Source: Bdellovibrionales bacterium
GTDB taxonomy: Bacteria; Bdellovibrionota; UBA1018; CAIMNF01
Reading direction: 5' to 3'
Assembly: GCA_040380025.1 (NCBI GenBank)
Contig: JBEIJY010000031.1
Location: 1 to 28,514, forward strand
Length of the DNA stretch: 28,514 nt
The notes beneath the pieces are model-generated. The model did no database searches. It was not told the origin of the DNA and was given only the letters and a program-made list of their open reading frames with translations. Below are positions 1,593 to 27,400 of the stretch, in pieces. Each line of letters opens with the position of its first letter. The stretch's first letter is position 1. The translations under genes and the position numbers were made by a program.

Positions 1593-1598
1593 AATTAC

Positions 1599-1628: not shown

Positions 1629-1696
1629 ATTGGGTCTTGTAATTACGGGAACTTAGCCGACAAGAGCCAGGGCGTGCACCGGGCTCACATCACTCT

Positions 1697-2020: not shown

Positions 2021-2118
2021 TACCCCTAAAAACTGTGAAGTTTGATTGATGAGTCACTCCGCGTTATGACCTCTCCCCAAGAACACTGCCAGGCAAAAGC
2101 TTAGAGGCAACGCTTTAT

Positions 2119-2927: not shown

Positions 2928-3181
2928 GAGAGGACATCCTGAAGCATCTGCTTGTCGAGCATCAGATCCGCCACGATTCGTTTTAAGCGAGAGATCTCTT
3001 CCTCTTGTTGCTTGAGCTTTCTCAGCTCGGGAACTCCTATGCCAGCATACTTCTTCTTCCAGACATAAAATGTTTGCTCGGTGATTCCCAGGCTCCGAAT
3101 GAGCTCCTTAACGGGCTCACCAGCCTCCGCGCGCCGGAGCGCATGGGTGATTTCTTCTTCGGTAAAACGACTTCGTTTCAT
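2915..3181 (-). CDS. IS3-family transposase OrfA
   Basis: MKRSRFTEEEITHALRRAEAG...ITEQTFYVWKKKYAG...LKRIVADLMLDKQMLQDVLSKKL. AAGGAGG RBS before ATG 3181. Confidence 0.9.
   Translation of the reverse strand: MKRSRFTEEEITHALRRAEAGEPVKELIRSLGITEQTFYVWKKKYAGIGVPELRKLKQQEEEISRLKRIVADLMLDKQMLQDVLSKKL
2921..2927 (-). promoter_or_regulatory. Programmed -1 ribosomal frameshift site (A AAA AAG)
   Basis: The minus strand reads CTCTC-AAAAAAG-CTTTAA at the orfA end, which is canonical for the IS3 family. Confidence 0.8.
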
Positions 3182-3261
3182 AGGTCCTCCTTTTGTCAAA
3201 AAGAAGGCCGCCTGTCACGCTGCATCTAAACTGATGAATGGCCGTGTTTTATGGGAGGAGG

Positions 3262-4263: not shown

Positions 4264-4412
4264 GAAGTCGAACATATCTTTGATTTTCGTCGGGGAGTAG
4301 TGTTTTTCGGTTCTCCACATCGTGGAGAGGGCGTCGAATTCAGGGGGTGAATGGAGGTGACGTTTTCATGACAGCTAGGTTGTTGAAATCATGGGTTGGT
4401 ACTTTGCGTTTA

Positions 4413-4625
4413 CTACGGATTGAGGTTCAAGAGACCCCATTGAGGAGTGCCTTCTTTAAGGGAAATCAAAAAGGCACGTTCTTCAGGTGTGAGGCCATTA
4501 CCCAGCTGAGTGATGATCTGGTCGCGGACCTTCAGTAGGTCGTCAAGTTTTACATCCTCAGCAGTCATGCCGAGGAATTCGTTTTTATAGGTCGCCTTGA
4601 TGTTTCTAAGTGTGGGGCTGACGAG
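4413..4625 (-). pseudogene. C-terminal fragment resembling AbiEii/AbiGii-family nucleotidyltransferase toxin
   Basis: Hand translation: LVSPTLRNIKATYKNEFLGMTAEDVKLDDLLKVRDQII...LTPEERAFLISLKEGTPQWGLLNLNP*. It resembles the 'EFxGMT...ERxFLxSLKxGxPxW' tail recalled for this family. AT-rich patch. Confidence 0.55.
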
Positions 4626-4659
4626 AGCGATACCCCGCTTCGGGTTTCGGGGTCTCCGA

Positions 4660-5050
4660 TTAGATCGCTCTCGGTTTCAGATCGCTCTTCAGATAAAGCG
4701 GGTGCTTGGGCTGACCCGAGAGGGACATTTCGAGACAATGTGGTTCTTTCAGCAGCTTGAGCACCTCGCTTCCCCGGTCGAAAAGCGTTCCATGATTGCC
4801 CCAGGCCGCAACCACGAGTGAGGCTTCCTCCTGGAGCTTCAAAAGGGAGCGGTTGTTCTCGGGACCCACAGGGTCGGGGCATTGACTCAGTTTCTGCGGA
4901 TCCGTGGCGCGATACGCGAAGAGGTTCGCCATCACCAAACCGCCGAAGCCCCAGGCCCGCGCGAAGTTCACGCATCGAGTGATGGTGGGATCATCGTTGG
5001 TCTCATCGGCGGTGGATGGATTCAGGTCGATGAACAGGACCAGAGGCCCC
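4660..5050 (-). pseudogene. DUF1643-family protein, probably N-terminally truncated
   Basis: VLFIDLNPSTADETNDDPTITRCVNFARAWGFGGLVMANLFAYRATDP...VVAAWGNHG...PKHPLY. There is no plausible start or N-terminal 'YRY' segment between it and the upstream stop at 5084. Confidence 0.7.
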
Positions 5051-5083
5051 CGAGGGGTCAGGGGCCCGAAAGCGGGCAAGCCC

Positions 5084-6568
5084 TCATCCCGAGCAGCACT
5101 TCTTGAATTTCTTGCCGCTCCCGCACGGACAGGGGTCGTTGCGACCGGTGCTGGAACGAACTGCATCGGCCTTGAGCAGTTCGGCGTGCTCGAAGAGTCT
5201 TTGGCGGATCGCCCCGACATCGCGGGCAAACCGCACATAATTCGAGTCCCAATACGCGAACACTTCATCAGCCTTCTGCCGGATCGCGGCCGCATCCGGA
5301 AGCGCCGGCTTACCGAGTTCGAAGCACTCCTCTTGAAACTTCGAGAGCTTCGCGACGAAAGCGTGATTGTTCAAGAATGATTCCTCGGGGGTTCCGGCCT
5401 GAATGAAAAGTCCGCCCAAAAAGCAGTTCAAGAAATCCGCGAGACGGAACACGAAGAGCCCGGGCTCCTTCATGACCGAGGCAAGAGGATGCCGGATCGG
5501 GAACAACTCGCTCATGTACCGGCTGTAAGAATCGTGAATCGAGAGGAGCTGTACCGCGAACAACACCCCCTGCCCCATCGATTCGGGCTCGATCGTTTCT
5601 CCGGTTTCGAGGTCGCTCAGAATGGAATTCAGGATTTCCATCGCCATCTCGTCCGGGTTCGGCGAAAGAACGGCTCCCAGAATGAACCCCTTGTGGCCCG
5701 AGAGGGGTCCCTGAACATTCATTCCCATGAACAGCAGGTCGAGCTCATGATCATCCAGCATACTGAGCCGACGATAGGCATCGTTCAGTTCACGGCTGGA
5801 TTTCTCGACCGGCGTCGGAAGAGGAGCCCCCCACTCCTCGGCAACATCCTCGAAGGTGAGAGCATCGGTATTCACACAGCGCTCGGAAAACGCGTTCAGA
5901 ATGAGGGTTCGCGTCTGCTCATCGCGCACCCCGAACTCGAGCAAATGACCGATGAGCACCGCATTGGTCGATCCCGCGTTCAGGCGATAATGGCAAAGCC
6001 GCTTTTGCAGTTTCGCGATCGTCAACTCCCGAAGGTGAACGATCTCGCGGTCCGGGTCTTCGGCGTGCTTCTCGAGCACCGTCCGCACCACGCCCGTCAA
6101 AAGATCGAGCAATTCGGCCTGATCGCGCCATGCGAGCCCGGTTTCGACCTCGCTCATGCAATACGGCACCACGGCCGGCCCGAACCCGGCAAGCACGGCC
6201 GGGATTTCCTCGTACTCCCAGCAGTGTTCCTCTTCGTCCTCGTCTTCGTACCCCGCACTGCCGTGCAAAAACCCGATCAAAACAGGAATCGAGGACGCAT
6301 CCCGAAGCTGTCCCAGCGCGCGCACGATCAGAACGGGCACGGGTTCGGCTTCCGGATCGAACCGGAACGTCCCCCGCGAAAGATCATCCTCGAGAATCTG
6401 ATGCAAGGCGGGCAGATCCTCGCGCGTGATTCCGGAGGCACGATAATCAAAATCGGGATCCAAAAGTGCTTTGTCCGAAAGCGCTTTCAGTTTCGACAGG
6501 ACTGTTCGGGAAGGAAGAGAGAGTTCCATAGGCCGGTGACGATAAAGCGGGATTCCGGATTTTTCCAT
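5084..6568 (-). CDS. SEC-C metal-binding motif protein with helical (HEAT/DUF1186-like) N-terminal region; start uncertain
   Basis: C-terminal [22 protein letters not shown]-like [20 protein letters not shown]. Confidence 0.8.
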
Positions 6569-11748: not shown

Positions 11749-12945
11749 CTAGATGCCCAGCTCCACGTTAAAACGGGCAATCCACGCATCCTCGCTCAGG
11801 GACTGCCGGGTGAGATCACCCTGAAACTTGACCCGATGAGAATCAAGATAGTAATTCAATCCTGCCGTCGTCTGCGCCATGAGCATGTTTTTCGGATCGA
11901 TCCGGGACCGCCCGAGTGGGCTCACGCGAGCGAACCGTCCCACGACCTCAAGCCGGTCGCTTAAGAGATACCCGGACTGGGCCATCCACCCTGAGCCTTC
12001 GAACAAAGCCCGAGTCGCACCCAGTGCCCCGTTTGGGGAGCTCCGGTGCCCGAACTCGGCCTGGAACGACCATCCGCGGAATTTTGCGATCGCATCAAGA
12101 AGGGTCACCGTTTGATCGCTTCGTATGGGATCACCGGTGGCCGGATCGCCCGTGGTGGTATAAATCGCGCCGATGGTTCCGCCGGCGCGATTCGAGCGTA
12201 GAAACCGCGCAAGCGTGGCCCCTAGCCCGAGACGAAATGACGGATGCCTTCGAAGGTCGCCCTCGACATAATCTTCTCGTCCGAGAAACGCACCAAAAGG
12301 CAGAACTTCGACTCGTCCCACATAAGCGAGGCCGGAGTCAGAAGCAGAGCCTGCGTTGCGCCCCTCACCCGTAGAAACGGATGCACGGACATTCCACAGA
12401 TCACGACGATAAAGAGCCTGGATTCCGAAATCGCGATCGATATTGAACACCCGATTCATCAAAGAACGATCGGCGAACTGCAGATCGCCCGAGGAGATCA
12501 CCCTCTGCCGGTTGCCCGGAAGCTTTCCCTGTCCGAAGGACACCGAGAGGGTTTGATCGGAATCCTGAAGAATCGCATAGGCGAAATTCGCATCCCTCAG
12601 AACCCCAGGGAATTTGCTCTCATTCCAGTCGAGATCTTCACGACTGAACGACAACTGCAGCTGATACGTGAGGCGCGGGTTTCCTGCATGCCCGGTCAGA
12701 CGCAAGCGTGCCCGCCGGACCCAGGCACGAACCTCGCCCACATCGAGGTCGCTTCCCGACACACTCGAAACCTCCAGAAGGTTCTGCACGCGGAAGCGGA
12801 GCGCGGCTTTGTAGCGCGATTCGGGATGGGCGAAGACGATTCCCTCTTCGAATGAAAGTGGCTCGAAGGGCCCCGCGACATCGGCATGTGCGGCGATGGA
12901 AAAAAACGAAATCAAGAACGGAATGACATTCCGACCAACCTTCAC
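11749..12945 (-). CDS. Phosphate-selective porin (OprO/OprP family)
   Basis: GGGGGAG RBS plus GTG, signal peptide (AHA-D), VRRARLRLTG, GQGKLPGNRQRVISSGDLQFADRS, DRDFG, GLNYY, C-terminal beta-strand. Confidence 0.85.
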   Translation of the reverse strand: MKVGRNVIPFLISFFSIAAHADVAGPFEPLSFEEGIVFAHPESRYKAALRFRVQNLLEVSSVSGSDLDVGEVRAWVRRARLRLTGHAGNPRLTYQLQLSFSREDLDWNESKFPGVLRDANFAYAILQDSDQTLSVSFGQGKLPGNRQRVISSGDLQFADRSLMNRVFNIDRDFGIQALYRRDLWNVRASVSTGEGRNAGSASDSGLAYVGRVEVLPFGAFLGREDYVEGDLRRHPSFRLGLGATLARFLRSNRAGGTIGAIYTTTGDPATGDPIRSDQTVTLLDAIAKFRGWSFQAEFGHRSSPNGALGATRALFEGSGWMAQSGYLLSDRLEVVGRFARVSPLGRSRIDPKNMLMAQTTAGLNYYLDSHRVKFQGDLTRQSLSEDAWIARFNVELGI

Positions 12946-12985
12946 GGCAGTGACTCCCCCTATTTTTAAAATCCCCGAAACAATG

Positions 12986-13543
12986 CTAGTGCAGAAGATC
13001 GCGCTTCGGGCCGGGCTCTTCAGGAGCACCGGCGAGAAACGCTTCGTCGCCGACAAAGGTTCCCCGAACAAAGGCTGCGAAGTCAAGAGTCTCGCGGAAC
13101 AACACGGGAAGCGAGAACAGATCGAGTTCCTCGCAAACCCGGGCACTGTACAGGACCTGCACCGATCCGTCCGCACGAAGGCCCGTGCGGCATCGTTGAT
13201 TCCGTGCAAGATTCAAAAACAGGAGTGACTCAAGAACGCTTTGATTCCGGAGGCGCGGAACAAGAGTCCCGAGATGGACCCGGATCACAAAGAAAGGCTC
13301 GCTTAGGATCTCGGGCGTACATACGATCGAGGCCGACACCACGACTCCGCCCTCGGTCGAAAACTTGTACTCGACTCCGGTTTTTTTCGTGGTCCGGCAA
13401 TGGGCAGGATCAAGTCCCTGCTCCCGGAGGTGCGCCTCGATCGCCTGGATCACAGGCAAAATGGCATTCGCGATCGCGGGAACCAGATTTGCAAAAGGAT
13501 TTGGAGTGGACGCGGCTTTCCGGACGGAGTGATTCGACTTCAT
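12986..13543 (-). CDS. Hypothetical protein, possible YbjN/CesT (type III chaperone-like) fold
   Basis: GAGG RBS. Strand-helix 'LESLLFLNLA', then 'GLRADGSVQVLYS' and a terminal amphipathic helix, which resemble that fold. Confidence 0.55.
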   Translation of the reverse strand: MKSNHSVRKAASTPNPFANLVPAIANAILPVIQAIEAHLREQGLDPAHCRTTKKTGVEYKFSTEGGVVVSASIVCTPEILSEPFFVIRVHLGTLVPRLRNQSVLESLLFLNLARNQRCRTGLRADGSVQVLYSARVCEELDLFSLPVLFRETLDFAAFVRGTFVGDEAFLAGAPEEPGPKRDLLH

Positions 13544-13705: not shown

Positions 13706-14350
13706 TCAATAAACCTTAATCGTTACTCTTCTATTTTTGGCGCGGTTCTCAGGAATGGCATGCCCGGAATCATCACGATTCGGCGCCACGGGTTTCATTT
13801 CAGCAAATCCCTCGATGACAGTCCGAGAAAGCACCTCGGACGGAAGCCCGAGTACTCGTAACACCGAGTGGGCCCGCTTCGAGCTAAGCTCCCAGTTGTC
13901 CGAAACAATACCATTCTGCATCGGAGCGTCATCTGTGTGTCCCTGAATTGCAACACGATAGGGAACAGGAATGCCCGACAGCACCCGAGAAAGGTGACCT
14001 ATGATTCGAATCCCATCTTGATTCACCTCGAATTTGCCGCTCTCGAAAAGGAACTTTTCGCGGATGTCGATGTTGAGCTCTCCATTCTTGGCCTCGACGA
14101 GGATTTCCCGTTCCAACGCCATCTCGGAAAGTTCTTTCAGAATCCGATCCTTCAGCTCCCGGATTTCATTCACCTTCGGAGCCTCACCCCTGAGAGTGGC
14201 GGCCGCCTGGCGGTAATCCTCGGCGCTCAACTTCCCTGCCGAAAAGCTGAATAGAACGACGAAAAAAACGAAAAGAAGGATCATCAAATCGCTCAGGCTG
14301 ACCAGCCAGATGAACTCCCCTTCGCTGTGGTTCGCGCGCTTCTTTCTCAC
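13706..14350 (-). CDS. motB: MotB-like stator subunit (TM Asp plus OmpA-like peptidoglycan-binding domain)
   Basis: WLVSLSDLMILLFVFFVVL (conserved Asp), LFESG, GHTD, NWELSSKRA, NRRV. GTGA overlap with motA. Confidence 0.9.
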   Translation of the reverse strand: MRKKRANHSEGEFIWLVSLSDLMILLFVFFVVLFSFSAGKLSAEDYRQAAATLRGEAPKVNEIRELKDRILKELSEMALEREILVEAKNGELNIDIREKFLFESGKFEVNQDGIRIIGHLSRVLSGIPVPYRVAIQGHTDDAPMQNGIVSDNWELSSKRAHSVLRVLGLPSEVLSRTVIEGFAEMKPVAPNRDDSGHAIPENRAKNRRVTIKVY

Positions 14351-15105
14351 AGATGCCCGGTCTTTCCGGAGGACTCCGCGAAGTAGGCCATGGGCTTCCG
14401 TTCCTCAAGCAACTCCAGCCAATGCACGATCTGCTCGAAAGACGCGTTCTCAAGAATATTCATAGTCTGGATCTTCTGCTGAAGAGGAGTCCAAACAACC
14501 AGCGAAAAGAAAAGTCCGAAGAAGGTGGTCAGCAAGGCGACACTCATGCTTGCACCGATCTTGCTCGGGTCATCCAGACTCCCGAGCAGTTGAACCATTC
14601 CAAGAATGGTTCCGAGCATTCCCACCGAAGGAGCCATCCGTCCGCCGAGATTGAAGATCTCCTGAACTTGCTCGAGGCGCCACGAGCTGGTCTCGAATTC
14701 TTTTTTATGGAGCTGGAGAATGTCGGTCACGGGCATCCGGGAAGCAAGACGCTTCAAGGTGCGATGGAGTTCGGGCGAGACCGGTGTTTTCAGGACCTCT
14801 TCGATCGCTTGGGAACCCTCGGTATAGACTCTTGTTCCGAGTCGCGTGATGGCTTCGAAGTCCTCGAGATTACCCGCCCTTTTTGCCGCAACCGAACCCC
14901 GCAACGCAGTGATGAACGACCTGCGGATCGCGCGAAAATCATAAGAAAGAAATATGATCCCGAGCGGACCTACTCCTGTGAGCAACATGGCCGGCCAATG
15001 CAGAAGCTTCATTCCCAGAGTGGCGCTACCGGAGTGCTCGAACCGATACAGGAGAGCCATGCTTCCGATTGTAAGAAACGCTCCGACGACTTTTGATAGA
15101 ATCAC
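14347..15105 (-). CDS. motA: MotA-like stator subunit
   Basis: APSVGMLGTILGMVQLLGSLDDPSKIGASMSVALLTTFFG...TPL, four hydrophobic segments and a cytoplasmic loop. GTGA overlap with the upstream gene. Confidence 0.9.
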   Translation of the reverse strand: MILSKVVGAFLTIGSMALLYRFEHSGSATLGMKLLHWPAMLLTGVGPLGIIFLSYDFRAIRRSFITALRGSVAAKRAGNLEDFEAITRLGTRVYTEGSQAIEEVLKTPVSPELHRTLKRLASRMPVTDILQLHKKEFETSSWRLEQVQEIFNLGGRMAPSVGMLGTILGMVQLLGSLDDPSKIGASMSVALLTTFFGLFFSLVVWTPLQQKIQTMNILENASFEQIVHWLELLEERKPMAYFAESSGKTGHL

Positions 15106-16724
15106 GAAGCCACCTCACGGAATCTACCGAGAAGCTCTCTTGCGGAACTCTTGCGGTCCTCCTCGGGCAGATCGCCGAGAACCTGGATCTGACTCTCCAC
15201 CAGCGAACGGCGCTCCTCGGGCAGATTGGATAGAAGAACATTCAATGTATCGCCCGTGGTCGAAACCAGAGCTTTTGCGAGCCTCTCGTTATCAAACTGT
15301 TCCAAGACCTTCCGGATCCGTTCCTTCGGCAAACGAGCGACATCCTCGATTCCGAAGCTGAATTTTTTGAGCTTCTGATACAGCGCCGGCATGGAAGCCT
15401 CAAGATCCTTCAGCAAGACCTCCTGGGCGTCGGAGTTCATCAGAATCTCGGTCCAGAACCGGGCATCCGCCTGATTCAGGCTTCCGAGATCCTTCGGGAT
15501 GGTCCGGATCGAATCTCTCACTGAAGCCTCGATCTTCAGAATCTGCGAAACTTCCATATGTTTCGCCTCGATGGAGCGGGCCATGAGTTTCAAACGTTCC
15601 TCGGGAAGAATGGATTCCAGAACCCGTGCAACCGTGGATGCCTTCACAAATCGCAGAACCACAGCAGCGTCGAGCGGATCAAGGGTCCGGACAAGAGTGA
15701 TCATCTGATCATCACTCATGGATTTCAGAAACCCGAAAAACCGGTCGCTCTGCCAGGCCTCGAGCGCCACGAATTCATTGAAGCTCCGGATGAAGGATTG
15801 GATTTTCCTTCCCCGTTCCGAATCCGCCATGGACACCGGCGTCTCGGGGAATTCAAAATCAAGGCCGGTAACCAAGTTCCGGAATCCGGGTCCATCGAGG
15901 ATTCCGCACAGTTCCGATTTCTCCTCCTTGGAGAGATGGGCGAAGTAGCTCTTGAAATTTCCGGTATGGGTCAAGAACAGGGTCATCAAAGCGGCGCGGC
16001 GCTCGTGAAACGCGCTCGCATCGGCTTCGGTGGAAGCGGCATCGGCGCCGGGCACCGGCACTCCGGCAGAATGGATTCCAATCTCGCTTCTTTTCTGCTT
16101 GCTGCGAAAACTCCGCATGAGCAGGAAGCCCACACCAATGGCCAGAGCGGTGAGCAAGGCTGCGATGATTACGTTCAAGCTCCATGCCTCATCCGACTCC
16201 TGCTTTGACTCCCGCCTCATTGTCACCGGGGTCATCGTGAACTCGGCTTTCGGCCCGTAAACCGAGAGTCTGCGTACAATAAGCTCCTTGACCTGGTTCT
16301 TCAATGAATCGGGCAGGGTCTCATCGACCACCAAATTCACCCAGATCTTTCCGAGAACCTCTTTGTCCACATTCTTGAAGAACTGCCGAGTCGTCTCTCC
16401 CGGGGTGGTTGGCTCCTGTGTGGCCGCTTTCGGGAAATGATCGACCTGGAACCCGGGCATCTCCGGAAGGTCTTCCTCTTTCGACTCCGTCTTCGGGGGT
16501 TGGAGGCTAAGGAGCTCCCCCTCGGTGATTTTTTTCTCGGTCACGGTATCGACACGCGCGACCACCTGAAGAGAATACTCAGACCGATTGAGGATGCGAT
16601 TGACCACATCCACCAAATCCGCCTTGACCCGGTCTTCCAACGCAGAAAGATTCTCGGCCGGAACCGAAGTGGCAAGACCGATCATGCCCATAAGGAGGAC
16701 GAAATAAAACCTATGTATCTTCAT
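15102..16724 (-). CDS. FliF-C(RBM3)-like / transmembrane / FliG M+C-like fusion protein
   Basis: Signal peptide; LEDRVK...LQVVARVD...MPG...GKIWVNLVVD...QVKELI (FliF RBM3 pattern); TM helix; FFGFLKSMSDDQM...AVVL (FliG-M); FGIEDVARLPKERIRKVLEQFDNERLAKAL...LSNLPEER...LG (FliG-C). ATGA overlap at 16721-16724. Confidence 0.75.
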   Translation of the reverse strand: MKIHRFYFVLLMGMIGLATSVPAENLSALEDRVKADLVDVVNRILNRSEYSLQVVARVDTVTEKKITEGELLSLQPPKTESKEEDLPEMPGFQVDHFPKAATQEPTTPGETTRQFFKNVDKEVLGKIWVNLVVDETLPDSLKNQVKELIVRRLSVYGPKAEFTMTPVTMRRESKQESDEAWSLNVIIAALLTALAIGVGFLLMRSFRSKQKRSEIGIHSAGVPVPGADAASTEADASAFHERRAALMTLFLTHTGNFKSYFAHLSKEEKSELCGILDGPGFRNLVTGLDFEFPETPVSMADSERGRKIQSFIRSFNEFVALEAWQSDRFFGFLKSMSDDQMITLVRTLDPLDAAVVLRFVKASTVARVLESILPEERLKLMARSIEAKHMEVSQILKIEASVRDSIRTIPKDLGSLNQADARFWTEILMNSDAQEVLLKDLEASMPALYQKLKKFSFGIEDVARLPKERIRKVLEQFDNERLAKALVSTTGDTLNVLLSNLPEERRSLVESQIQVLGDLPEEDRKSSARELLGRFREVAS

Positions 16725-17347
16725 ACCGAACCACCTTCCATCAAAGCAGGCGCCTCGCGACGGGAGGGATCCAGAGAACGGGCCTTTTCCCATGCTTCCG
16801 CCGCCTCTTTTTCCCTGCCTTTCAGCTTGAGCAGACTGCCTTTCATCATCCAGGCCCGAACGGACTCGGGTTTCAGCTCAAGAGCATCATCCACCACCGC
16901 TTCCGACTCCGAAAACTTCCTTTGGTTGTACAATCGATTCGCCCGTGTCAGCGATCGCTCTACCTGACGGTCTACGGAACCGGCAGCCGTTTCATCGAAC
17001 TTCTCTTCGGACAGCGCGGGGGCCGGTACCGGCTCGGCGGATGCGGCGGATGGTGCCGCTGCACTTGATGCGGAGGGGGCGGCCGCAACCGGCGCTTCGG
17101 GCGGATTCACCGGGGTCGTATTCAATACCAGCTGAATCGGTGCCGGCTTCAGATCATCCAAAGGAATGGTGAACCGATACGACTTCAGCTTGGCGAATTC
17201 CTCACTCCCGACAAGCGTCTTGGTCCCGTAGGGAGTGTTCAGGATGAGAACGTTTTTTCCGCCGGTGGCTCGAAAAACCGGAGCTTCAGCCGCAAGAGCC
17301 CCGTTCACGATCACAAAAGAAACAGCAAGGATTCGAATGGAGTTCAT
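16721..17347 (-). CDS. Secreted tetratricopeptide-repeat protein
   Basis: Signal peptide, Ala/Pro-rich linker, TPR pair (ANRLYNQRKFSESEAVVDDALELKPESVRAWMMKGSLL...AWEKARSLDP). Confidence 0.85.
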   Translation of the reverse strand: MNSIRILAVSFVIVNGALAAEAPVFRATGGKNVLILNTPYGTKTLVGSEEFAKLKSYRFTIPLDDLKPAPIQLVLNTTPVNPPEAPVAAAPSASSAAAPSAASAEPVPAPALSEEKFDETAAGSVDRQVERSLTRANRLYNQRKFSESEAVVDDALELKPESVRAWMMKGSLLKLKGREKEAAEAWEKARSLDPSRREAPALMEGGSV

Positions 17348-17350
17348 GGA

Positions 17351-18313
17351 TTATTTCCCCAAAGAGAACCCGACACTGACGGTGCCGGCGATCATGGTGG
17401 TTGCGTCGGTCTCTCCGGATGTTGCCGGGATCAGACCAAGCAAACCGGCGTGGATGAATGAGAACGAACTCAAAAACACATAGTGACCGATCCCAAACAT
17501 GACCCCTTTGGAATCAGAGGAAAATCCGTATCCGGCATCGAAATGAGTGAGTCCGTAGATGCGACTCCCTTTGAACCGGTTCCGCAGGGCGATCGAAGGC
17601 ATGACATAGATGGGGTTGTTCCGCGTGAATCCGGAAAACCCTCCGATCACCAAACCGCCTTTTCCGGGAGCAATCTCTTCCATGATGGCAAGGTTGAAAT
17701 TAAGGGGAAACGACCCACCCTCGCCATCACCGTTCCCGGCGAATGAGAACGCCGCCCCGGTGCCGATCATGATTTGGGTGGCGGCATCCCGGAAGTCGAG
17801 ATTCGGAATCCGGAAACTTTCGGCCGCAATCATCTCGCCGTTGTTGGGTCCGATCAGGGTCGCCTGGGCCATGATCGAGAATGCGGTCCGATAGACAACA
17901 AGACTCAAAAACGACTCCGCCCCCGTTTTCTTTCCGAGCTCGATCAGCTCCTTTTGATCGGGAGCGCCCCGAGTCACTACGATCCGGTCGCCTTCGACTT
18001 GAACCCGCGGAGCAAGACATTCTTCGCAATGATAAACCTTGGTGGTTTTCCCCTCGGTGATTTCGTGGGTGAGATCCGCAAGGAGGATCGGCTTGAGATG
18101 CTCTTCGAGAGGGGCGGTCATGTCGATCGAGAAAACCGAGAGACTCGCCGGAGCTGGCTTAAGTTCATTGATCCATCGACCGACCTCCTGACCGAGATTC
18201 TTCATCGCCATGAACTCACCTTCGGTCGCCGCTTCGGCTCCAGCGCCGAAGGACAGTCCCGCTGCGGCCAACGCGAACATTCCAAAAAACTTCCACTGAG
18301 TGAACTTGTGCAT
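17351..18313 (-). CDS. Secreted protein: FlgO/CsgG/TolB-N-like domain with CxxC plus probable C-terminal beta-barrel
   Basis: Signal peptide (AEA-A); LIELGKKTGAESFLSLVV...AQATLIGPNNGEMIAAESF; C-terminal alternating Gly/aromatic strands ending VSVGFSLGK. Confidence 0.6.
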   Translation of the reverse strand: MHKFTQWKFFGMFALAAAGLSFGAGAEAATEGEFMAMKNLGQEVGRWINELKPAPASLSVFSIDMTAPLEEHLKPILLADLTHEITEGKTTKVYHCEECLAPRVQVEGDRIVVTRGAPDQKELIELGKKTGAESFLSLVVYRTAFSIMAQATLIGPNNGEMIAAESFRIPNLDFRDAATQIMIGTGAAFSFAGNGDGEGGSFPLNFNLAIMEEIAPGKGGLVIGGFSGFTRNNPIYVMPSIALRNRFKGSRIYGLTHFDAGYGFSSDSKGVMFGIGHYVFLSSFSFIHAGLLGLIPATSGETDATTMIAGTVSVGFSLGK

Positions 18314-18557
18314 ACGGATCCGATCTTTCTCTCGAAACAGTTGGGTGATATAAAATTCGTCGCGGATTTTAACATCGTCGACCTGTTTAATCAACTAAAT
18401 ATTGTTTGATACAGCTCGTGATTTATTTGATTTTAAATTCGCGATTGTTCTGTCTACCGCAAGCTTCTGTCAGCTGAGGTCACTGCAAAGAATATTTATT
18501 TCACCCTCTGGTTGCAGCGAACCAGCAAGCCTCGTACCTTCTTCCCCTGGAGCCCTC

Positions 18558-19163
18558 ATGCCGATTCAACGAAAAAAGTCTTTCCTGAAAAGCACGATCC
18601 TTCACGTCATTTTGATCGGCGCGGTCACGGTGATCCTCACCATCGGGGTGAAATCGCCCGAAACAATCGTCGAGGTGATCTCGCTCGAGAACATCTCGAT
18701 CTCTCGCGGCGTGAAAAAGGCGGTCCATACCGCCGTTCACGCCATCGGACTTCCGCACAAAGAGCCCGAGGCGGAGCACGAAGCGAGCGCCCCTTCGGTA
18801 GAAACCTCTTCGAACCCGAACCCATCACAAGAACAGTCATCCGCTGGGAGCGGAATCCCGGATTCGGTGCTTCAGCAGTACCTGGGCGAAATCCGACAGA
18901 GAATCGAATCGACCAAGCGCTATCCGAAAGATGCACGGATGAACGGACAAGAAGGGATTGTGGGGCTCAGGATTCGCATCGCTCCGGACGGCACCCTGCT
19001 TGAAGTCGAGGTGGAGTCGCCCGCGATGTTTCCTTCATTGAACCAAGCGGCCGTTTCGGCCGTAAAAGCGCATCAAAAATTCCCGGAGGCTCCGTCTTCG
19101 GGTAGTCCACGGACCGAGCCGATCACGCTTCATCTGCCGATCCGGTTCGTCCTCGCGCCCTGA
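18558..19163 (+). CDS. tonB: Energy transducer TonB
   Basis: TM SxxxH-type motif (STILHVIL), YPKDARMNGQEGIVGLRIRIAPDG, LNQAAVSAV, LPIRFVL. GGAG RBS. Confidence 0.88.
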   Translation: MPIQRKKSFLKSTILHVILIGAVTVILTIGVKSPETIVEVISLENISISRGVKKAVHTAVHAIGLPHKEPEAEHEASAPSVETSSNPNPSQEQSSAGSGIPDSVLQQYLGEIRQRIESTKRYPKDARMNGQEGIVGLRIRIAPDGTLLEVEVESPAMFPSLNQAAVSAVKAHQKFPEAPSSGSPRTEPITLHLPIRFVLAP

Positions 19164-19195: not shown

Positions 19196-19216
19196 AAATG
19201 CAACTCCATTGCATTT
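19196..19216 (+). promoter_or_regulatory. Palindromic operator, Zur-like box
   Basis: AAATGCAA-CTCCA-TTGCATTT is a perfect 8-5-8 dyad directly upstream of a ZnuD-like receptor. Confidence 0.7.
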
Positions 19217-19233
19217 ATGATAGCGTCCGCCTC

Positions 19234-21243
19234 ATGACTTCCATCTTTGCTCTTTTTTTCGCGATTTTTGGATTTACTTCGTTTGCCTTCGGAGCGGATT
19301 CACCCGGTAGCGAATATCGCCTCCCCGAAATCAGCGTTCTGGGCGGTGCCATGGGCGGATCCGCCTTTGATGCGCTTCCCTCGGTATCGAAGACCGCGGG
19401 CCAGAAACTCGAAAAAAAGAAAAAATCCACCTTGGGAGAAACCCTCTCGAACGAAGCCGGCGTGAGTTCCACCTTCTTCGGGCCGAACTCCTCGCGCCCG
19501 GTGATCCGCGGTCTCGACGGCGATCGGATCCGGATTCTTGAAAACGGAATCGGACTACTCGACGCCTCGGGAGCAAGCCCCGATCATGCCGTGTCGATCG
19601 ACCCCTTGCTCATCGAATCGGTCGAGATTTTGCGCGGCCCCTCGGCCCTTTTGTACGGAAGCACCGCAACCGGCGGGGTGGTGAACATCAAAACCAATCG
19701 CATCGCCGAAACGCCACTTACCGAGGGCATTACAGAAGTCCGCGCGGGCGCCTCTTCGGTCGATGCGGGCCGGACGATCGGCGCACTCTCGCGCTATCGC
19801 CTCGGGGATTTCGTGCTTCATGTCGATGCTTCTTACCGCAAGTCAGACGATTACTCGGTGCCCGCATTCGCACGAACGGCCGCGGAGCGGGCAGAGAGCC
19901 CGCAGGACCCCGAGGAATTCAAAAGGGTCACCAACAGCGGCAACAAAGCCCTGCAAGGTGCAATCGGCGTGAGCCGCCCGTTTCGCGACGGACACATCGG
20001 GATGGCCGTATCGGGCTATCAATCGGAATACGGAACGGTTCAAGAAAAAGAAGTCACGATCGACATGGACCGCGTGCGGGTGGACGCCTCCGGGGAACTG
20101 AGGCGATTCGGGTTTTTGGATTCGATTCGCTTCAAATCTGCGTTCACCAAGTACGAACACACTGAACACGAAGGCGATGAAGTGGAAACGATTTTCGGAA
20201 ACCGCGGGATCGAATCGCGCGTCGATGCAAAAGTGGATTCGCTCTTTTTCGGGCTCCAGCATCAGTACTTCAAATTGAGCGCAAGCGGAAAAGGGGCATT
20301 TCTGCCGACCACGAGGAACTCTTCGCTCGGCGTGTTCGCCCTGAAAGAAGCGAAGTGGGGCCGATTCACTCCGAGCGCGGGAATCCGACTCGAATCGAAC
20401 GGTGTTGCCTCGGAACAATCGTCGAATGCGGATTTCAATCCGGCGGAGTCGAAGAACTTCTTTGCCCCGAGCGCTTCGCTCGGCGTGCAGTACCAGATTC
20501 CGAAGGCGGAGTCTTCGACCCAGGACTGGATTTTGGGACTTCATTCGACGTAGACGGAGCGGGCGCCGAATTATCAGGAACTTTTTGCGAAGGGAGCGCA
20601 CAAAGCGACCGGGATTTTTGAAAAGGGTGATCGCGGTTTCAAGACCGAGAAAAACATCGGGCTTGAACTTTCGGTGAAAACCAAAGGCCCCGCTCACTCG
20701 GGCCGATTCTCGACTTTCTTTCAGAATTACGCGAATTACATCGCGCTTTCGCCGACCGAGGAATTTAGTCTTGGCCTTCGAGAGCACCATTTCAATGCCG
20801 TCCGCGCGCACTGGTTTGGAGCCGAGCTCGAGTACCAGTACACCCTTCCCCAAAAGTTCCTTCACGGACTTTGGGACCTCGAGTTCAGGACCGATTGGGT
20901 TCGGGGCCTCGACCTGACCCGGAACGGAAACCTTCCGCGCGTGACTCCGGTTCGCGCCACGGTCGGGGTGAACTACCAGCATCGCTTGTTTCGCGCGGAC
21001 TTCGAGTTCCAGCGCGTGGAAGGGCAGGGCTTCACGGCCACGAACGAAAGGGCCACACCGGGATTCAACCTTTTGAATTTCGGCCTTGAGGCCCCTGTCA
21101 CCACCGGATTCGGGACCTTCAAAGCGATCTTTCGGGCATCGAACTTGCTTAATGTCGAAGCCCGGAACCATGTGTCCTTCTTGAAGGAAATCGCTCCCCT
21201 TCCCGGCAGAAACCTGTCGATCGGGATTCAGGCGGCAATCTGA
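19234..21243 (+). pseudogene. ZnuD-like TonB-dependent receptor interrupted by a single in-frame TAG (20551-20553)
   Basis: TLGETL, FGPNSSRPVIRG, ASPDHAV, EILRGPSALLYGS, YEHTEHEG. After the TAG the same frame continues TERAPNYQELFAKGAHKAT...NLLNVEARNHVSFLKEIAPLPGRN. Confidence 0.85.
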
Positions 21244-21432: not shown

Positions 21433-24400
21433 ATGATCCGTTTGGTTCCTCTTCTCAGCACGATTGCTCGCCCGACACGCCACCTGACACCCGGTTCTCC
21501 GGGTCGCGGAGCTTCATGGCTGTCTATCCCTCTTTTTGTTCTTTCGCTCGCGGTGAGCTCGTGCAAACTCGAGAATCCATTTCAGAAGATCGACCCCGAC
21601 CTGAAGAGCCCACCCTCGGCGGACTCGAACTCCTCCATCACCTCCCCTGGCGCGACCGCGGTAATTCCGGACCACATTGAAATCGTGTCGGGGAATCTCC
21701 AGAGCGGGACAGTCGGAACGAGGCTCTCCCAACTGCTCCAATGGCGTGCGATCGACCAGAACGGGGACCCGATCGCAAACGCGAAATTCCGCGTGAGTGC
21801 GATTTCAACGGGGGGACGCACATCCACCACCTCGATGACCTCCGACTCGAACGGCCTCGTGCGTATGAGCTGGACTCTCGGTGGCTCGCCGGGATCGCAG
21901 ACATTGACGGTGACCGGAACCGACACCTATACGGGATCTCCGAAGATCCTCACCTTCACCGCAACCGCATCTGCGGGAAGTGCGGCGTTTTCGAATTCCT
22001 CGATCTCTGCAAGCGGCCCTGTGCTTGCGGATGGAGCCGACAGCAGCACCATCACCATCCAACTGAGAGACGCGTTCGGGAACGCCGTCGTCGGAGTCAC
22101 GCCCACCTTCTCGGCGACCAACACCAACAACGCGAACACCTATGGAGCCTGCAGTTCGACAAATTCGAGCGGTGTTTCGACCTGCTCGATGGCATCGGGA
22201 TTTGCGGAGTGGAAGGCGGTATCGCTCCGGTCGCCGATCACGAAGGCCGGAAACATCGTTCTGTTTTACCGGTACATCGGAACCAAGGCGAAGCTCGAGT
22301 TCTCGACCACCGCACCCTCCGCCACCACCGCCGGAGCGACGCTTTCGCAATCACCTACCGTGAGGATTCTGGATACCCGGGACCGGCTGGTCTCGGCGTC
22401 CGATTCGATCACGATCGGCATGTTTTCGGATGCCGCGTGCACCACTGCGATCACAACCACTCCCTCGGGTGAGCAGGCGCTCACCGGAACAAAGCAAAAA
22501 AATGCGACCGCAGGGGTCGCTGTGTTCAACAATCTTTCGATCAATCGGGCGGGGATGGTCTACCTGAAGGCCACCTCAGGGACTCTCTCTTCGCCATGCT
22601 CGAGTGCCATCTCGGTCGGAGCAGGAGCGGCATCTGCGAGCCAAAGCTCGGTGACTGTTTCTTCGGCGAGCGTGGCATCAGGATCATCAGTGACCGCAAC
22701 CCTGACCGCGAAGGATGCATTCGGAAACCCTAACCCCTCAGGAATTGCCGGCACGGGATCGATCGCGTTCACCTCGAGCATTGTGGGTGGAACCGGAACC
22801 TTCGGCGGGGTCAGCGATGCGGGATCGGGGATCTATACCGCGGACTTCACCGGTATACTCGCTGGCGTGGTCACGATCGGCGCGACGATATCTTCTGCAG
22901 CGGCTGGAACAAGCGCGAGCCTGACCGTGACGGCCGGAACTGCGACGAAACTCGCCTTCACCGCGGGTCCTTCGGGTGTGAACACCGAGGATTCGGTATT
23001 CACGAACCAGCCGGTGGTGACCGTGCAAGACGCGCAAGGAAACACGGTGACAGGATCCTCCGCTCCGGTGACTCTGGCCATCGGAAGCAATCCCGGATCA
23101 GCATCCCTCGCCGGCGCCATCACGGTTAACGCATCGAACGGAATTGCCACCTTCAGCGGCCTGTACCTCGACGAATCCGGAACCGGATACACGCTCACCG
23201 CAGCGAGCCCGGGGCTTACGAGCATTACGAGCGCAAGCTTTGATGTCGAGCCGAGCTCGGCTACGAATCTGGTGTTTTCGACCGAGCCCTCGACGACCGG
23301 AACCGCTGGCTCGACCTTTGGCATTCAGCCCGTGATTCGGGCGCATGACAACGATGGCGCCACCGTTACGACCTATACAGGAGCCATCACTCTTTCGGCC
23401 TACTCGGACGCATCGTGCACCACTGCAATCTCGAGTACGCCGAACGGAAGCACCCCTCTCGGTGGAACCCTGACCCTGAGTGCCATTGCGGGCGAAAGTA
23501 CATTTTCGGGCCTTTCGGCTCGAATTTCGGGAACAGTATACCTGAAGGCCTCTGCCTCAGGACTCTCGAGCGCCTGTTCGGGTGCGATCACTGTTGCACC
23601 GGGTACGTACTCTGCGGCGGAATCGATCGTGGAGCTCTCGGCAGGCACAGTCTCGTCGGGTTCTTCGGTTACCGCGACGCTCACCACCAAGGATGCCTAT
23701 GGGAATCTCGATCCTTCTGGCCTCCCTGCCTTGGGCTCGATCGCTTTCACCTCGAGCATTGTGGGTGGAACCGGCACCTTTGGCGCGGTCTCGGCGGCGG
23801 GATCTGGCGTGTACACCGCGGACTTCACCGGAGTGCTTGCAGGAGCGGTCACGATCGGTGCCACGATTTCGTCTGTCGCAGTCGGAACCAGCGCGAATCT
23901 TACGGTGAATCCCGGCCCCGCGACGAAACTTGCGTTCACGACCGAAGTTTCGAGCTCGAACACGGCAGGCGCCTCGTTCGGGATACAACCCGTTGTGACG
24001 GTGCAAGATGCGGCGGGGAACACCGTGACCAGCTCCGGTGCGAGCGTTGATCTTGTGATCGGATCGAACCCGGGGGCGGGCACGCTCTCGGGTACTGCGA
24101 CTGTGAGCGCAGTGAACGGTGTCGCAACTTTCTCTGGGCTTTCGATCAATAAAACCGGAACGGGCTACACGCTCATGGCTACCAGTGCTGGGCTCACCGA
24201 TGACACGAGCTCTGGATTCAATGTGATTTCGGGCGCTGCCACTACTCTGGCAATCACCACCCAGCCTTCTGGCTCGAACACTGCTGGTTCTGCTTTTGGT
24301 ACCCAGCCTGTGATCACGGTGTTGGATGCCGAAGGAAACACCGTGACGGGCTCCACTGCCCCTGTGACACTTACAATCGACACGAATCCAGGCTCAGGAA

Positions 24401-27400
24401 CACTCTCAGGCACCGCCACCGTGAACGCAGTGAACGGCGTGGCGACTTTCTCGGGGCTTTCGATCAACAAAACAGGCACAGGCTATACACTGCAGGCCTC
24501 AAGTACGGGGCTCACGGACGATACGAGCACGGCCTTTGATGTGGTTCCGGGGGCGGCGGCTTCGCTTGCCTTCACCACTGAACCCGCGAGCTCTGCCACC
24601 GCCGGTACTGCGATCTCGACCCAGCCGGTGGTGACCGTTCAAGATGCCCAAGGGAATATCGTCACGGGGTCTTCCGCGAGCATTGCACTCTCGGCCTTCT
24701 CGGATGCTTCGTGTACCACCGCGATCGCAACCACTCCGAATGGCTCCAACACCTTGGATGGAACCCTGAGTGTGAGTGCTTCATCGGGAGTGGCGAGCTT
24801 TTCGGATGTGACTGCAAACCGTGCCGGTCCCGTTTATCTTAAGGCCGTGGCGGCGGCCCTTGTGAGCGATTGCTCGAGTGCGGTCACAGTGGAACCGGGT
24901 GTTTACTCGGCATCGGAATCGAACCTTGCGCTTTCGGCGAGTACCGTTGCTTCAGGAAGCTCGGTTACCGCGACTCTTTCAGCCAAAGACCAATTCGGGA
25001 ACTCAAGTCCGTCGGGCTTGCCGGCGTTGGGTTCGATCGGAATGACCTCAAGCAGTGTCGGGGGTACGGGGACATTCAGCGCGATTTCGGATGCGGGATC
25101 GGGTGTCTATACAGCCCAGTTCACGGGGGTGGTTGTCGGAGCCGTCAGTATTGATGCGACGATCTCTTCGGCAGTGGCCGGGGCGAGCGTAAATCTCACG
25201 GTAACGCCGGGATCAGCGTCGAAGCTCACCTTCACGACGAGCCCCTCAAGCCCGAACACCGCCGGTGCACCATTCGGGACCCAGCCCGTGGTGACCGTGC
25301 AAGATGCGGAGGGGAACACCGTCACCGGATCAAATGCCTCGATCGCTCTTGCGATTGGCACGAACCCGGGCTCGGGCACGCTCTCGGGCACGGCTACTGT
25401 CAGTGCTGTGAACGGTGTGGCGACCTTCTCGGGACTCTCTCTGAACAAGGCTGGAACCGGTTACACCCTCACCGCTTCGAGTGCTGGTTTGACGAGCGAC
25501 ACGAGTGCTGCATTTGATGTCGTACCGGGAGCCCCAAGCAAGCTCACTTTCGTGACTGAACCTTCGAGCCCGAACACGGCAGGAGCAGACTTCTCTACCC
25601 AGCCCGTAGTGGCGGTGCAAGATGCCGAAGGGAACACCGTTACCGGCTCCACTGCTTCGATCACTCTGGCCATCGATACGAACCCGAGCTCTGGAACACT
25701 CTCGGGCACGGCGACCGTGAACGCAGTGAACGGTGTGGCCACCTTCTCGGGGCTTTCGATCAATAAATCCGGAACAGGATACACGCTCACTGTAACGAGT
25801 GCTGGCCTTACTGACGATACGAGCTCCGCGTTGGATGTGAATCCGGGCCCTGCCACCACTCTTGCCTTCACCACCGAACCCGCGAACTCTGCCACCGCCG
25901 GTGCCACTCTCTCGACTCAGCCCGTGGTGACCGTGCAAGATGCCGAAGGGAACACTGTCTCAGGCTCTTCTGCAAGCATCGCTCTATCGGCGTTTTCGGA
26001 CTCTTCGTGTACCACCGCCATTTCGACCACGCCCGATGGATCCACCACTTTGGGAGGAACCGTCATCCTGAACGCCTCATCTGGCGTGGCTGGTTTTGCA
26101 GGAATCTCGGCGAATCGCGCAGGAACCGTATACCTGAAAGCCGAGGCTTCGGGCCTTGCAACCGACTGTTCGAGTGCGATCTCGGTAACACCCGGCGCTT
26201 ATACCCTGAGCAACAGCGCGGTCACACTTTCTTCGAGTTCAGTGAACTCGGGCTCGTCCGTCACCGCAACCCTCACCGCCAAGGATGCCTATGGGAATCT
26301 CGATCCTTCTGGCCTCCCCGCCTTGGGCTCGATCGCGTTCACCTCGAGCATTGTGGGTGGAACCGGCACCTTCGGCGCGATCTCGGCGGCGGGTTCTGGC
26401 GTGTATACCGCCTCGTTCACGGGAGCAGTCGCTGGAGCGGTCACGATCGGTGCCACGATTTCCTCAAGTGCGGTTGCGACGAGCGCGAATCTTACGGTGA
26501 ATCCGGGTACCGCGACCAAACTCGCCTTCACGACCGAAGTTTCGAGCTCGAACACGGCCGGAGCCGCCTTCGCGACCCAGCCCGTGGTGACGGTGCAGGA
26601 TGCGGAAGGGAACACGGTGACCAGTTCCGGTGCGAGCGTTGATCTTGTGATCGGATCGAACCCGGGAACAGGAACTCTCTCGGGAACAAGCACCGTCAAT
26701 GCAGTGAACGGTGTCGCGACCTTCTCGGGGCTCTCGATCAATAAAACCGGAACGGGCTATACGCTCACCGCTGCTAGCGCGGGGCTCACAGACGATACGA
26801 GCTCTGCATTCGATGTGACTCCAGGCACTGCCACTACCCTTGCAATCACGACCCAACCTTCGAGCACGAATACAGCAGGAACGGCGTTCGCCACTCAGCC
26901 GGTGGTCACGGTATTGGATGCCGAAGGAAACACCGTGACGGGCTCCACTGCCCCTGTGACTCTCGCGATCGACACGAACCCGAGCGCTGGAACACTCTCG
27001 GGAACTGCCACAGTCAGCGCCGTAAACGGTGTTGCCACCTTCTCGGGCCTTTCGATCAACAAAACAGGCACGGGCTATACACTGAGATCCTCAAGTACGG
27101 GACTCACGGACGATACGAGCACGGCCTTTGATGTGGTTCCCGGTGCGGCAGTTTCTCTTGCCTTCACCACCGAACCCGCGAGCTCTGCGACTGCCGGAGC
27201 CTCTCTCTCGACCCAGCCCGTGGTGACCGTGATGGATGCGGGAGGAAACACCGTTTCAGGCTCCTCTGCAAACATTGAACTTTCGGCTTTCTCGGATGCT
27301 TCGTGCACCACTGCGATTGCGACCACTCCGAATGCCTCCAACACCCTGGACGGGACCCTCACCGTGAACGCGTCTTCGGGTGTGGCAACGTTCACCGGAA

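Follow-up and report, generated by a model that had tools for sequence, protein, structure and literature searches.

The window analyzed here is a 28,514-nucleotide (nt) stretch of DNA comprising positions 1 to 28,514 (forward strand) of contig JBEIJY010000031.1 in the genome of a Bdellovibrionales bacterium (NCBI GenBank assembly GCA_040380025.1), and the system in question is a five-gene cassette, g1 to g5, on the minus strand between positions 13706 and 18313. The open reading frame (ORF) listing and the reverse-strand sequence showed that the five genes are co-oriented and translationally coupled. g1 (18313..17351) encodes an exported protein of 320 amino acids (aa), counted from the ATG at 18313, and g2 (17347..16721) an exported TPR protein of 208 aa. 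g3 (16724..15102, 540 aa) encodes an apparent fusion, in which a part resembling the RBM3/collar region of FliF is followed by a transmembrane (TM) segment and by a part resembling the N, M and C domains of FliG. g4 (15105..14347, 252 aa) and g5 (14350..13706, 214 aa) encode a MotA/PomA-type stator A subunit and a MotB-type stator B subunit, respectively. The g1/g2 junction is a 3-nt gap (TAA-tcc-ATG); g2 and g3 overlap in ATGA, with the TGA of g2 inside the ATG of g3, and the g3/g4 and g4/g5 overlaps are both GTGA. A first-pass annotation of this DNA had listed the same junctions, namely a 3-nt gap and three 4-nt ATGA/GTGA overlaps, and had read the products as an outer-membrane (OM) protein, a TPR protein, a FliF-FliG fusion, MotA and MotB.

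The FliG part of g3 is secure. The protein matched the Pfam families FliG_C (51.7 bits; cut-off, 23.3) and MgtE_N (32.2 bits; cut-off, 25.9), with FliG_M at 15.9 bits, below its cut-off of 25; against the NCBIfam model TIGR00207 it scored 50.8 bits, under the equivalog cut-off of 226.7. To collect its family, all 1.84 billion representatives were scanned with HMMER; 564 proteins reached E ≤ 0.001, and 67 of them reached E ≤ 1e-30, the latter mostly 513–600 aa long and matched along their length. Word-indexed protein searches did not recover these relatives (a single-protein query found only itself, and a profile found one ordinary FliG), and among the public names of 10 representatives, nine were absent and one was “hypothetical protein”. 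PF01706 was matched by 59 of 59 family members, FliG_M by 56 of them at E ≤ 0.01 and FliG_N by nine. The family profile matched the Thermotoga maritima FliG-MC structure 1lkv with an E value of 5e-26.

An AlphaFold2 (AF2) model of g3, computed with an alignment of 59 of the 67 representatives, had a mean predicted local distance difference test (pLDDT) score of 87.5. The model predicted an N-terminal hydrophobic helix (residues 2–18), a periplasmic domain (residues 26–167), a TM helix (residues 178–208) followed by a short low-confidence linker, and a cytoplasmic, all-helical FliG-like module (residues 229–540). The periplasmic domain has the predicted order alpha-beta-beta-(disordered 73–110)-beta-beta-alpha-beta and includes two strands of 23–24 residues; in the disordered loop between the long strands, G91 and F92 are invariant and P90 is nearly invariant in the family, forming a P-G-F motif. 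The top Foldseek match of the model in the PDB was full-length FliG (3hjl; E, 2.6e-8; 334 columns). Many FliF S-ring/RBM3 entries also matched (E, 7e-3 to 2e-2; probability, 1.0), with SpoIIIAG lower (E, 0.25). Using VIA-align, residues 264–540 were superimposed on Salmonella FliG 5–317 (Z, 11.2–12.9; 259–270 residues aligned), and residues 17–170 on FliF 228–438, i.e. RBM3 and the beta-collar (Z, 9.5–10.5; 131–139 residues aligned). The next unrelated fold to the periplasmic domain was OsmC/Ohr (Z, 8–8.7; approximately 85 residues aligned). Individually, the FliG C-terminal domain matched 1qc7 (Z, 13.0; root-mean-square deviation (rmsd), 1.8 over 85 residues) and the FliG middle domain 4fq0 (Z, 11.8; rmsd, 1.9 over 79 residues). 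No RBM1 or RBM2 (SctJ-like) domain was present in g3, the periplasmic part of approximately 150 residues being wholly the RBM3-like domain. Helices 229–263, which precede the FliG-N-like domain, may be equivalent to FliF's C-terminal tail, which binds FliG-N in the flagellum. Both folds on which the earlier reading of the 540-aa protein as a FliF-FliG fusion depended were matched in the model by Foldseek and VIA-align.

The stator subunits are likewise of flagellar type. g4 matched MotA_ExbB (PF01618) with 67.7 bits (cut-off, 22.9). Its best NCBIfam model was PomA (NF006527; 70.2 bits versus a cut-off of 341), TolQ and ExbB scored 17.2 and 14.6 bits, and residues 11–227 aligned with the solved MotA 9luc (phmmer E, 1.6e-16); all 10 PDB matches were MotA/PomA chains. 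g5 consists of a TM helix carrying the channel Asp, a plug and an OmpA-like peptidoglycan-binding domain, and it matched MotB_plug (PF13677; 43.1 bits; cut-off, 24) and OmpA (PF00691; 45.8 bits; cut-off, 27.2), with MotD as the best NCBIfam model (123.2 bits versus a cut-off of 283). The TM3/TM4 prolines were kept in g4 and in all nine MotAs aligned from cassettes of the same type (type A). The channel Asp of g5 (SLSDLM) was conserved in 9/9 type-A MotBs, as well as in the A′, B, C and flagellar MotBs aligned. The first-pass annotation had singled out these same MotA prolines, the MotB Asp and the peptidoglycan-binding domain as retained.

A maximum-likelihood tree was calculated for 27 MotA/TolQ-type proteins from genomes G000 (the genome of the window), G001, G019, G145, G048 and G281 and from the related loci described below; three short G281:C4 matches were omitted and the L025/L032 duplicates were used once. 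The tree divided the MotA type from the TolQ/ExbB type with support of 100/99 and placed the cassette MotAs on the MotA side, where they formed a clade of their own (96/95) with a long stem, including the divergent G281 protein. This clade was apart from the canonical flagellar MotA of G000, G001 and G019, and the MotAs of two further cassettes of G001 (types B and C) fell into a different clade (97/90). The deep branching order is unsure because of the long branches. Thus the phylogeny proposed along with the first-pass annotation places g4 among MotA/PomA-type proteins, in its own clade and apart from the flagellar MotA of its own genome. A Zorya/defence system was also considered as an identity for the cassette and rejected, since PADLOC matched only g5, to generic MotB-like ZorB models, and none of g1 to g4.

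Residues of the rotor–stator interface were compared by aligning the genome's own FliG to the g3 family, and the HMMER alignment to T. maritima FliG gave the same register. The FliM-binding motif, which we take to be the one named EHPQR, reads NEHPQT in the genome's FliG versus TLDPLD in g3, and the family consensus keeps only its E and P. In the torque helix, whose conserved charged residues are R281, D288, D289 and R297 in Escherichia coli FliG numbering, the Arg of “PVR” has become Pro in g3, and the acidic pair that follows it has become Lys/Ser in the g3 of the window and Lys/variable in the family; the distal Arg (R536) is kept and is nearly invariant. On the side of MotA, RREG..ALE of 9luc corresponds to YTEG..AIE in the window. 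Tyr occupies the R90-equivalent position in 9/9 type-A MotAs, and the E98-equivalent position is acidic in 7/9. The EHPQR motif of FliG-M is named in PMC6290876, and the E. coli pairs R90–D289 and E98–R281 in PMC7564593 and PMC12505986; the mapping of the R90/D289/E98/R281 numbering onto the present alignments is our own. Since the R90–D288/289 pair is gone on both sides and the FliM site is degenerate, the interface between g3 and its MotA is likely to be private to this pair and switchless, judging from these alignments.

The first two genes encode the exported partners. g1 matched no family in Pfam, NCBIfam or PADLOC. Its AF2 model (pLDDT, 79.8; 18-sequence alignment) consists of a signal peptide, an alpha/beta domain at approximately residues 31–170 and eight long antiparallel strands at residues 179–319. 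The N-domain contains an invariant CxxC (C96/C99), and its Foldseek matches were the C-terminal domain of LpoB (4q6z; TMt, 0.71–0.72; rmsd, 3.6 over 143 columns), TolB-N, GNA1162 and PelC. The C-domain matched OprF-N, OmpX, Ail, NspA, OmpW, OmpA and PagL (E, 3e-4 to 1e-2; probability, 1.0), so that the protein, predicted earlier to be an OM protein, models as an OM-type eight-stranded barrel. g2 was above the Pfam cut-off for TPR_16 (35.4 bits; cut-off, 32.7) and also for TPR_2. After a signal peptide, it has a conserved mini-domain of approximately 45 aa containing a TPYG motif, then a spacer rich in Pro/Ala and, at the C terminus, a TPR domain with a RAWxMKGSL motif. Among 16 orthologs the Pro/Ala/charged spacer varied from approximately 20 to more than 100 residues, and the TPR domain was strongly conserved. 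This layout, in which the Pro/Ala-rich spacer joins a small anchor domain to a C-terminal binding domain, recalls that of TonB and TolA. Neither g1 nor g2 of the window genome has a lipobox Cys, as read from the sequences.

A profile search of genome contigs with a nine-row g3 alignment identified eight related loci, which came from Bacteriovoracia, Pseudobdellovibrionaceae and Bdellovibrionales metagenome-assembled genomes. The five genes were present in the same order in seven of the eight loci, at 28–47% identity, the eighth being cut by a contig end. Genome G019, from the same order as the window genome and from another family, has a five-gene cassette at 31–45% identity, and G281 (family f22) has a divergent five-gene version. 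The maintenance of this gene order across lineages indicates more than chance, and answers the question of conservation on which the first-pass interpretation had been made to depend. Full-length g1 orthologs (profile search, E ≤ 7e-92) were found in 18 of 401 Bdellovibrionota genomes, namely G000, G019, G128 and 15 of the 34 genomes of family f18, and g2 followed g1 in 17 of the 18 loci, the remaining one being cut by a contig end. No g3 ortholog was found in any of 16 congeners, where the best match (E, 8.5e-12) covered only the FliG region. In G128 the cassette (L067/L028, G128:C22) looks damaged, with an in-frame TAG in g1 and a g3 split into frames of 132 and 413 aa.

Two other kinds of cassette that combine a FliG fusion with MotAB were found in G001. 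Type B (L063, G001:C1:9000-25000) consists of a g1-like protein of 387 aa that shares the N-domain, a 250-aa protein, a FliG fusion of 783 aa, MotA and MotB, followed by an SLT-TPR protein. Type C (L064, G001:C1:226000-238280) consists of unassigned proteins of 496, 317 and 343 aa, a FliG fusion of 628 aa, MotA and a 382-aa MotB, followed by a TPR protein. Compared with type A, both have longer fusions, different accessory genes and MotAs of another clade, and neither was found in G000. Weak g1 N-domain matches, which mark type B, were seen in another 71 genomes, most of which belong to the same order as the window genome. The presence of such paralogous cassettes in congeners points to a diversifying family of devices. 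Beyond these genomes, the ESM Atlas contained look-alike clusters of 500–680 aa with FliG_C/FliG_M, some of them with the FliF C-terminal family; these are a lead only, and their commonest phyla were Pseudomonadota, Balneolota, Elusimicrobiota, Bacteroidota and Bdellovibrionota. G001 also carries another unusual use of a MotA-type motor, at L087 (G001:C14:29000-42000, minus strand, 906-5707), where a 270-aa MotA and a 326-aa MotB-plug protein with PDZ instead of the OmpA-like domain are followed by a 528-aa unassigned protein and a response-regulator–TPR protein.

The first-pass annotation had described the cassette as standing alone, with no flagellar export, rod, hook or switch genes. This was borne out for the window, in which the 16 other ORFs scanned matched no flagellar family, and for the flanks of seven related loci, in which no flagellar Pfam family was found among 37 ORFs, but not for the genome. 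G000 (2.35 Mb, 53 contigs, 98% complete) is flagellated by gene content: it encodes FlhA (908.8 bits), one FliF, a canonical FliG (TIGR00207, 328.1 bits) and one canonical MotAB, whose MotA (TIGR03818, 342.9 bits versus a cut-off of 303.8) is the only one in the genome to pass an NCBIfam equivalog cut-off. The remaining four MotA_ExbB matches are of TolQ/ExbB type. The cassette is therefore stand-alone in its locus only, not in its genome. There were four FliG_C matches in G000 in total, including two small FliG_C-only ORFs of 183 aa (L065:5914-6465, G000:C8) and 209 aa (L066:1044-1673, G000:C20). Family f22 likewise has small FliG_C-only proteins of approximately 141–160 aa at numerous sites, with between one and several in each genome, and none adjoined motAB in the cases seen. 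In this family, in which FliG_C hits are multiple, 24 of 26 genomes had no FliG fusion and only these small proteins. G128, which has no match to FlhA or canonical FliG, was considered as a flagellum-less carrier of the cassette and rejected, since it has flagellins and FliF and its cassette looks damaged.

Upstream of g1, two candidate promoter elements were noted on the minus strand, each on weak evidence. A sigma-70-type candidate at 18366..18394 (TTGATT-17-TAAAAT with TG) was one of four consensus sites in a region where 2.1 were expected. A candidate sigma-54-type −24/−12 element, AGGTACGAGGCTTGCT (18524..18539), lies approximately 226 nt upstream of g1 and fits 10 of 12 consensus positions (two mismatches); matches of this type were not enriched in the window (6 versus 3.85 expected). 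In G019 and G128 a sigma-54 activator gene is located divergently upstream of g1 (G019 L024:2084-3616; G128 L028:58-1578), and the −24/−12 motifs before g1 score 10 and 11 of 12 and are better than that of the window, which has no adjoining activator gene.

Among the products of the other ORFs of the window are an integrase, a glycosyltransferase, a porin and a TonB-like protein, together with a TonB-dependent receptor in two parts and a giant protein of Ig-like repeats. The TonB-like gene (18402-19163) is divergent beside g1, an adjacency not seen in the related loci examined. Downstream of motB, at a distance of 162 nt, is a same-strand ORF of 185 aa without a family (12986-13543, minus strand), which partially overlaps the porin ORF in its long N-terminal extension. 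The TonB-dependent receptor is divided into a 451-aa ORF (19198-20553, plus strand) with the Plug and the barrel start, and a 189-aa ORF (20674-21243, plus strand) with the barrel end; its versions in congeners are single open frames of 655–733 aa at 58–61% identity, and the split may stem from a frameshift, from pseudogene formation or from faulty assembly. The giant ORF (21433-28512, plus strand), open at the end of the window and longer than 2360 aa, contains repeated Invasin_D3/Big_1-type Ig-like domains and is probably a surface adhesin. A phage-type integrase gene (391-1530, plus strand) lies in the low-GC start of the window (positions 1-2000; GC, 0.45–0.49 versus 0.53–0.61 elsewhere). 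Among five congeners, the flanking porin (11749-13209) was present in one and the TonB-dependent receptor in four, on different contigs, and the synteny comparison with these five did not define a clean insertion site. Given the low-GC start with its integrase and the porin found in only one of five congeners, this region seems to be a variable one, and an island may contain the cassette.

Among described systems, the cassette comes closest to the flagellar motor core, composed of the FliF MS-ring, the FliG ring and MotA5B2/PomA5B2; it has the domain-level features of that core and not its family-level features. Shared are the N-M-C fold of FliG, the RBM3/collar-like fold between two membrane helices, an A subunit of MotA/PomA type and a MotB that retains the plug, the channel Asp and the OmpA-like domain. 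In the flagellum, however, FliF and FliG are separate proteins, whereas in the cassette they form one polypeptide, and g3 lacks RBM1/RBM2, which house the export gate. FlhA/FliPQR, rod, hook, filament and FliM/FliN do not belong to the cassette unit, which is instead partnered with OM barrel and TPR proteins. EHPQ, the charges of R281/D288/D289 type and the R90 equivalent of MotA are not kept, and all NCBIfam equivalog cut-offs were missed widely.

Fusions of FliF to FliG are known in two forms. A natural one has been published for Chlamydiaceae (Bergeron 2016, PMC4768692); for the Chlorobium fusion mentioned in the first-pass annotation, no publication was found. According to Bergeron 2016, the chlamydial protein of approximately 330 aa has RBM2 and one RBM-like domain, only the middle domain of FliG and no stator, and is a possible injectisome partner. 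It shares with g3 a shortened FliF (signal sequence, two TM helices and a reduced periplasmic region) fused to a FliG-like cytoplasmic domain in a non-flagellar unit; g3 differs from it, on the paper's description, in its RBM3/collar-like part, its whole FliG N-M-C including the stator-binding C domain, and its operon MotAB. The second form comprises engineered fusions of Salmonella and Vibrio, which are reported still to build rings (PDB 8z4d/8z4g; PMC11481574, PMC10941966). The fused chain of 8z4d was matched by the g3 family profile (E, 3.7e-14) and by fold (Z, 9.6). These are laboratory constructs with full-length FliF (a 945-aa chain) inside a complete flagellum, whereas g3 is natural.

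Other ion-driven 5:2 motors, namely ExbBD-TonB, TolQR-TolA, AglRQS-Glt, GldLM and ZorAB (Rieu 2022, PMC9389320; PMC12505986), share with the cassette an inner-membrane ion motor, a periplasm-spanning partner and an OM component. The likeness lies in the TonB/TolA-like layout of g2 and the TolB-N-like domain of g1. The cassette differs in that its A subunit is of flagellar MotA type, termed FIT in PMC12505986, and not of TolQ/ExbB type, its driven partner is a FliG module and its MotB has a plug, which is typical of flagellar stators according to PMC12505986. It also differs from Zorya, since its MotA gave no ZorA match and ZorC and ZorD are absent. The MotAB survey of Puente-Lelievre 2025 (PMC12505986) divides flagellar from generic transporters, and the passages found in it do not mention FliG fusions. 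“FliG” does not occur in a 2026 Bdellovibrio review (PMC13689555), and our literature search returned no description of a natural FliF-FliG fusion with adjacent MotAB. Each part of the cassette is recognizable as a flagellar motor part; the combination of a one-piece FliF-FliG rotor, a private stator and OM partners, with no export gate, rod, hook, filament or switch, was not described in the papers searched.

The domain and fold identities, the gene order with its conservation, the distinct clade of the cassette MotAs and the changes in interface residues lead us to favor, with moderate confidence, the hypothesis that the five genes encode a self-contained, proton-driven and export-less rotor–stator envelope machine derived from the flagellar basal body. 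In such a machine, g3 would form an inner-membrane ring through its FliF-RBM3/beta-collar-like periplasmic domain and would carry a built-in FliG ring on the cytoplasmic face. g4 and g5 would form dedicated units of MotA5B2 type, anchored to peptidoglycan and conducting protons through the channel of the MotB Asp, and the MotA units would push the FliG C-terminal domain of g3 via the rewired, private interface. Lacking a FliM/FliN partner, such a device would operate switchlessly. In the periplasm, the collar of g3 and its invariant P-G-F loop would engage g2, and g2 would extend to the TolB-N/LpoB-like domain of g1; torque or tension arising at the inner membrane would thereby be passed to the OM. 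Rotation and any output of the device are parts of the proposal that we infer.

Several observations weigh against this hypothesis. The ring of g3, the contact between MotA and the FliG domain, and the binding of g1 and g2 to g3 are all inferred. The likeness of g3 to FliF is one of modeled fold and is weak by sequence: none of the 59 family members matched the FliF families PF01514/PF08345 at E ≤ 0.01, and PF08345 matched one place per genome, the canonical FliF, in 25/25 genomes. When the periplasmic domain was compared by hhalign with a profile of 22 FliF RBM3 regions, the match comprised 34 columns (E, 0.0022; probability, 13%) and spanned only the first helix and strand, in the register expected; because it is so weak, we do not claim sequence homology to FliF for this domain. 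The barrel of g1 ends in Gly-Lys/Arg instead of the usual aromatic residue, and its OM location is accordingly read from the fold. The loss of the classical charge pairs, seen in the alignments, could mean that the interaction is weak or does not generate torque. Moreover, no flagellum-less carrier was found among the cassette-bearing genomes examined: FlhA was present in 16 of the 17 other genomes with a type-A cassette, and the 17th, G128, has flagellins and FliF.

The main rival explanation, which the flagellated state of every carrier examined keeps plausible, assigns the cassette an accessory role in the flagellar motor: g3 would co-assemble with or around the FliF/FliG rotor or form a second ring, g1 and g2 would act as periplasmic or OM scaffolds, and MotAB would serve as an additional stator set suited to certain loads or ionic conditions. 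In motors of Campylobacter and Vibrio type, such scaffolds are provided by TPR proteins and OM-linked disks; the complete flagellar core is encoded in G000, and every part of the cassette is of a flagellar type, whether judged by fold or by family. The additional motAB sets of Bdellovibrio mentioned in the first-pass annotation are in print: for HD100, it is reported that three motAB pairs serve a single flagellum (Morehouse 2011, cited in PMC11323537 and PMC13689555). We nevertheless consider this role unlikely, while granting it an appreciable chance. The cassette is patchy among flagellated relatives, as seen for g3 in the congeners and for g1 across the phylum, which indicates that the flagellum does not need it; even in family f22, with its extra FliG_C hits, nearly all genomes lack the fusion. 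In the loci examined the cassette was never beside flagellar genes. In addition, g3 has a FliF-like ring domain of its own and a complete FliG without EHPQ and the classical torque-helix charges, and the MotA lacks the R90 equivalent; this altered interface, together with the separate ring domain, tells against a mixing of the cassette proteins with those of the canonical rotor and stator.

The rival ranked next is that g3 does not rotate but is a low-order, membrane-anchored FliG-like adaptor, pushed or pulled by MotAB like TonB, TolA, GltG/J or GldM to perform linear or tension work on the g2–g1 link to the OM. The TonB/TolA-like build of g2 with its variable spacer, the TolB-N/LpoB-like domain of g1 and the lost charge pairs would all suit such an adaptor, and the ring of g3 is itself putative. 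This account is improbable in our estimate, since the periplasmic domain matches the ring-forming RBM3/beta-collar of FliF, with long paired strands, a disordered tip loop and a Z score of approximately 10 over approximately 135 residues (SpoIIIAG being among the weaker hits), the complete N-M-C module of FliG, whose known role is ring building, is kept, and the stator has a flagellar-type MotA and a MotB with a plug. Much less probable is a regulatory function as a brake or clutch, in which g3 would be a membrane-anchored FliG decoy that parks or sequesters flagellar stator units. A membrane-tethered FliG C-terminal domain could bind MotA, and the small FliG_C-only proteins common in the phylum could act similarly; however, the cassette has its own divergent MotAB translationally coupled to g3, the residues needed to bind canonical MotA are changed, and a decoy has no need of a FliF-like ring domain, an OM barrel protein or a TPR protein. 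Least credible is the view that a second flagellar system is decaying here and that the cassette is its remnant, without a function today. The damaged cassette of G128 and the patchy distribution are what such a remnant would predict, but elsewhere the frames are intact, in the same order and with tight overlaps across lineages at only 28–47% identity, the channel Asp, the prolines and the CxxC, P-G-F and TPR motifs are invariant, and the folds of g1 and g3 are predicted with high confidence.

The self-contained machine that we favor may, more tentatively, represent a further class of envelope machine driven by a 5:2 motor, in which MotAB turns a FliF-FliG ring that has neither a secretion apparatus nor a filament, and a TonB-like TPR protein conveys torque or tension to an OM barrel; types A, A′, B and C would then be members of one diversifying family. 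If the cassette works alone, it would be a new member of the short list of ion-driven 5:2 rotary systems, which comprises the flagellum, Ton, Tol, Agl/Glt, GldLM and Zorya, and would offer a minimal, genetically compact rotor–stator pair for structural and biophysical work. It would also open to test the long-standing question of whether the torque-generating core of the flagellum can function without the type III secretion core. If the cassette serves the flagellum as an accessory instead, fast-swimming predatory bacteria would have a motor embellishment of a new kind. Should such a further class of machine exist, the rotor–stator core of the flagellum can work as an independent module, which bears directly on whether a motor could have existed apart from the export system in flagellar evolution.

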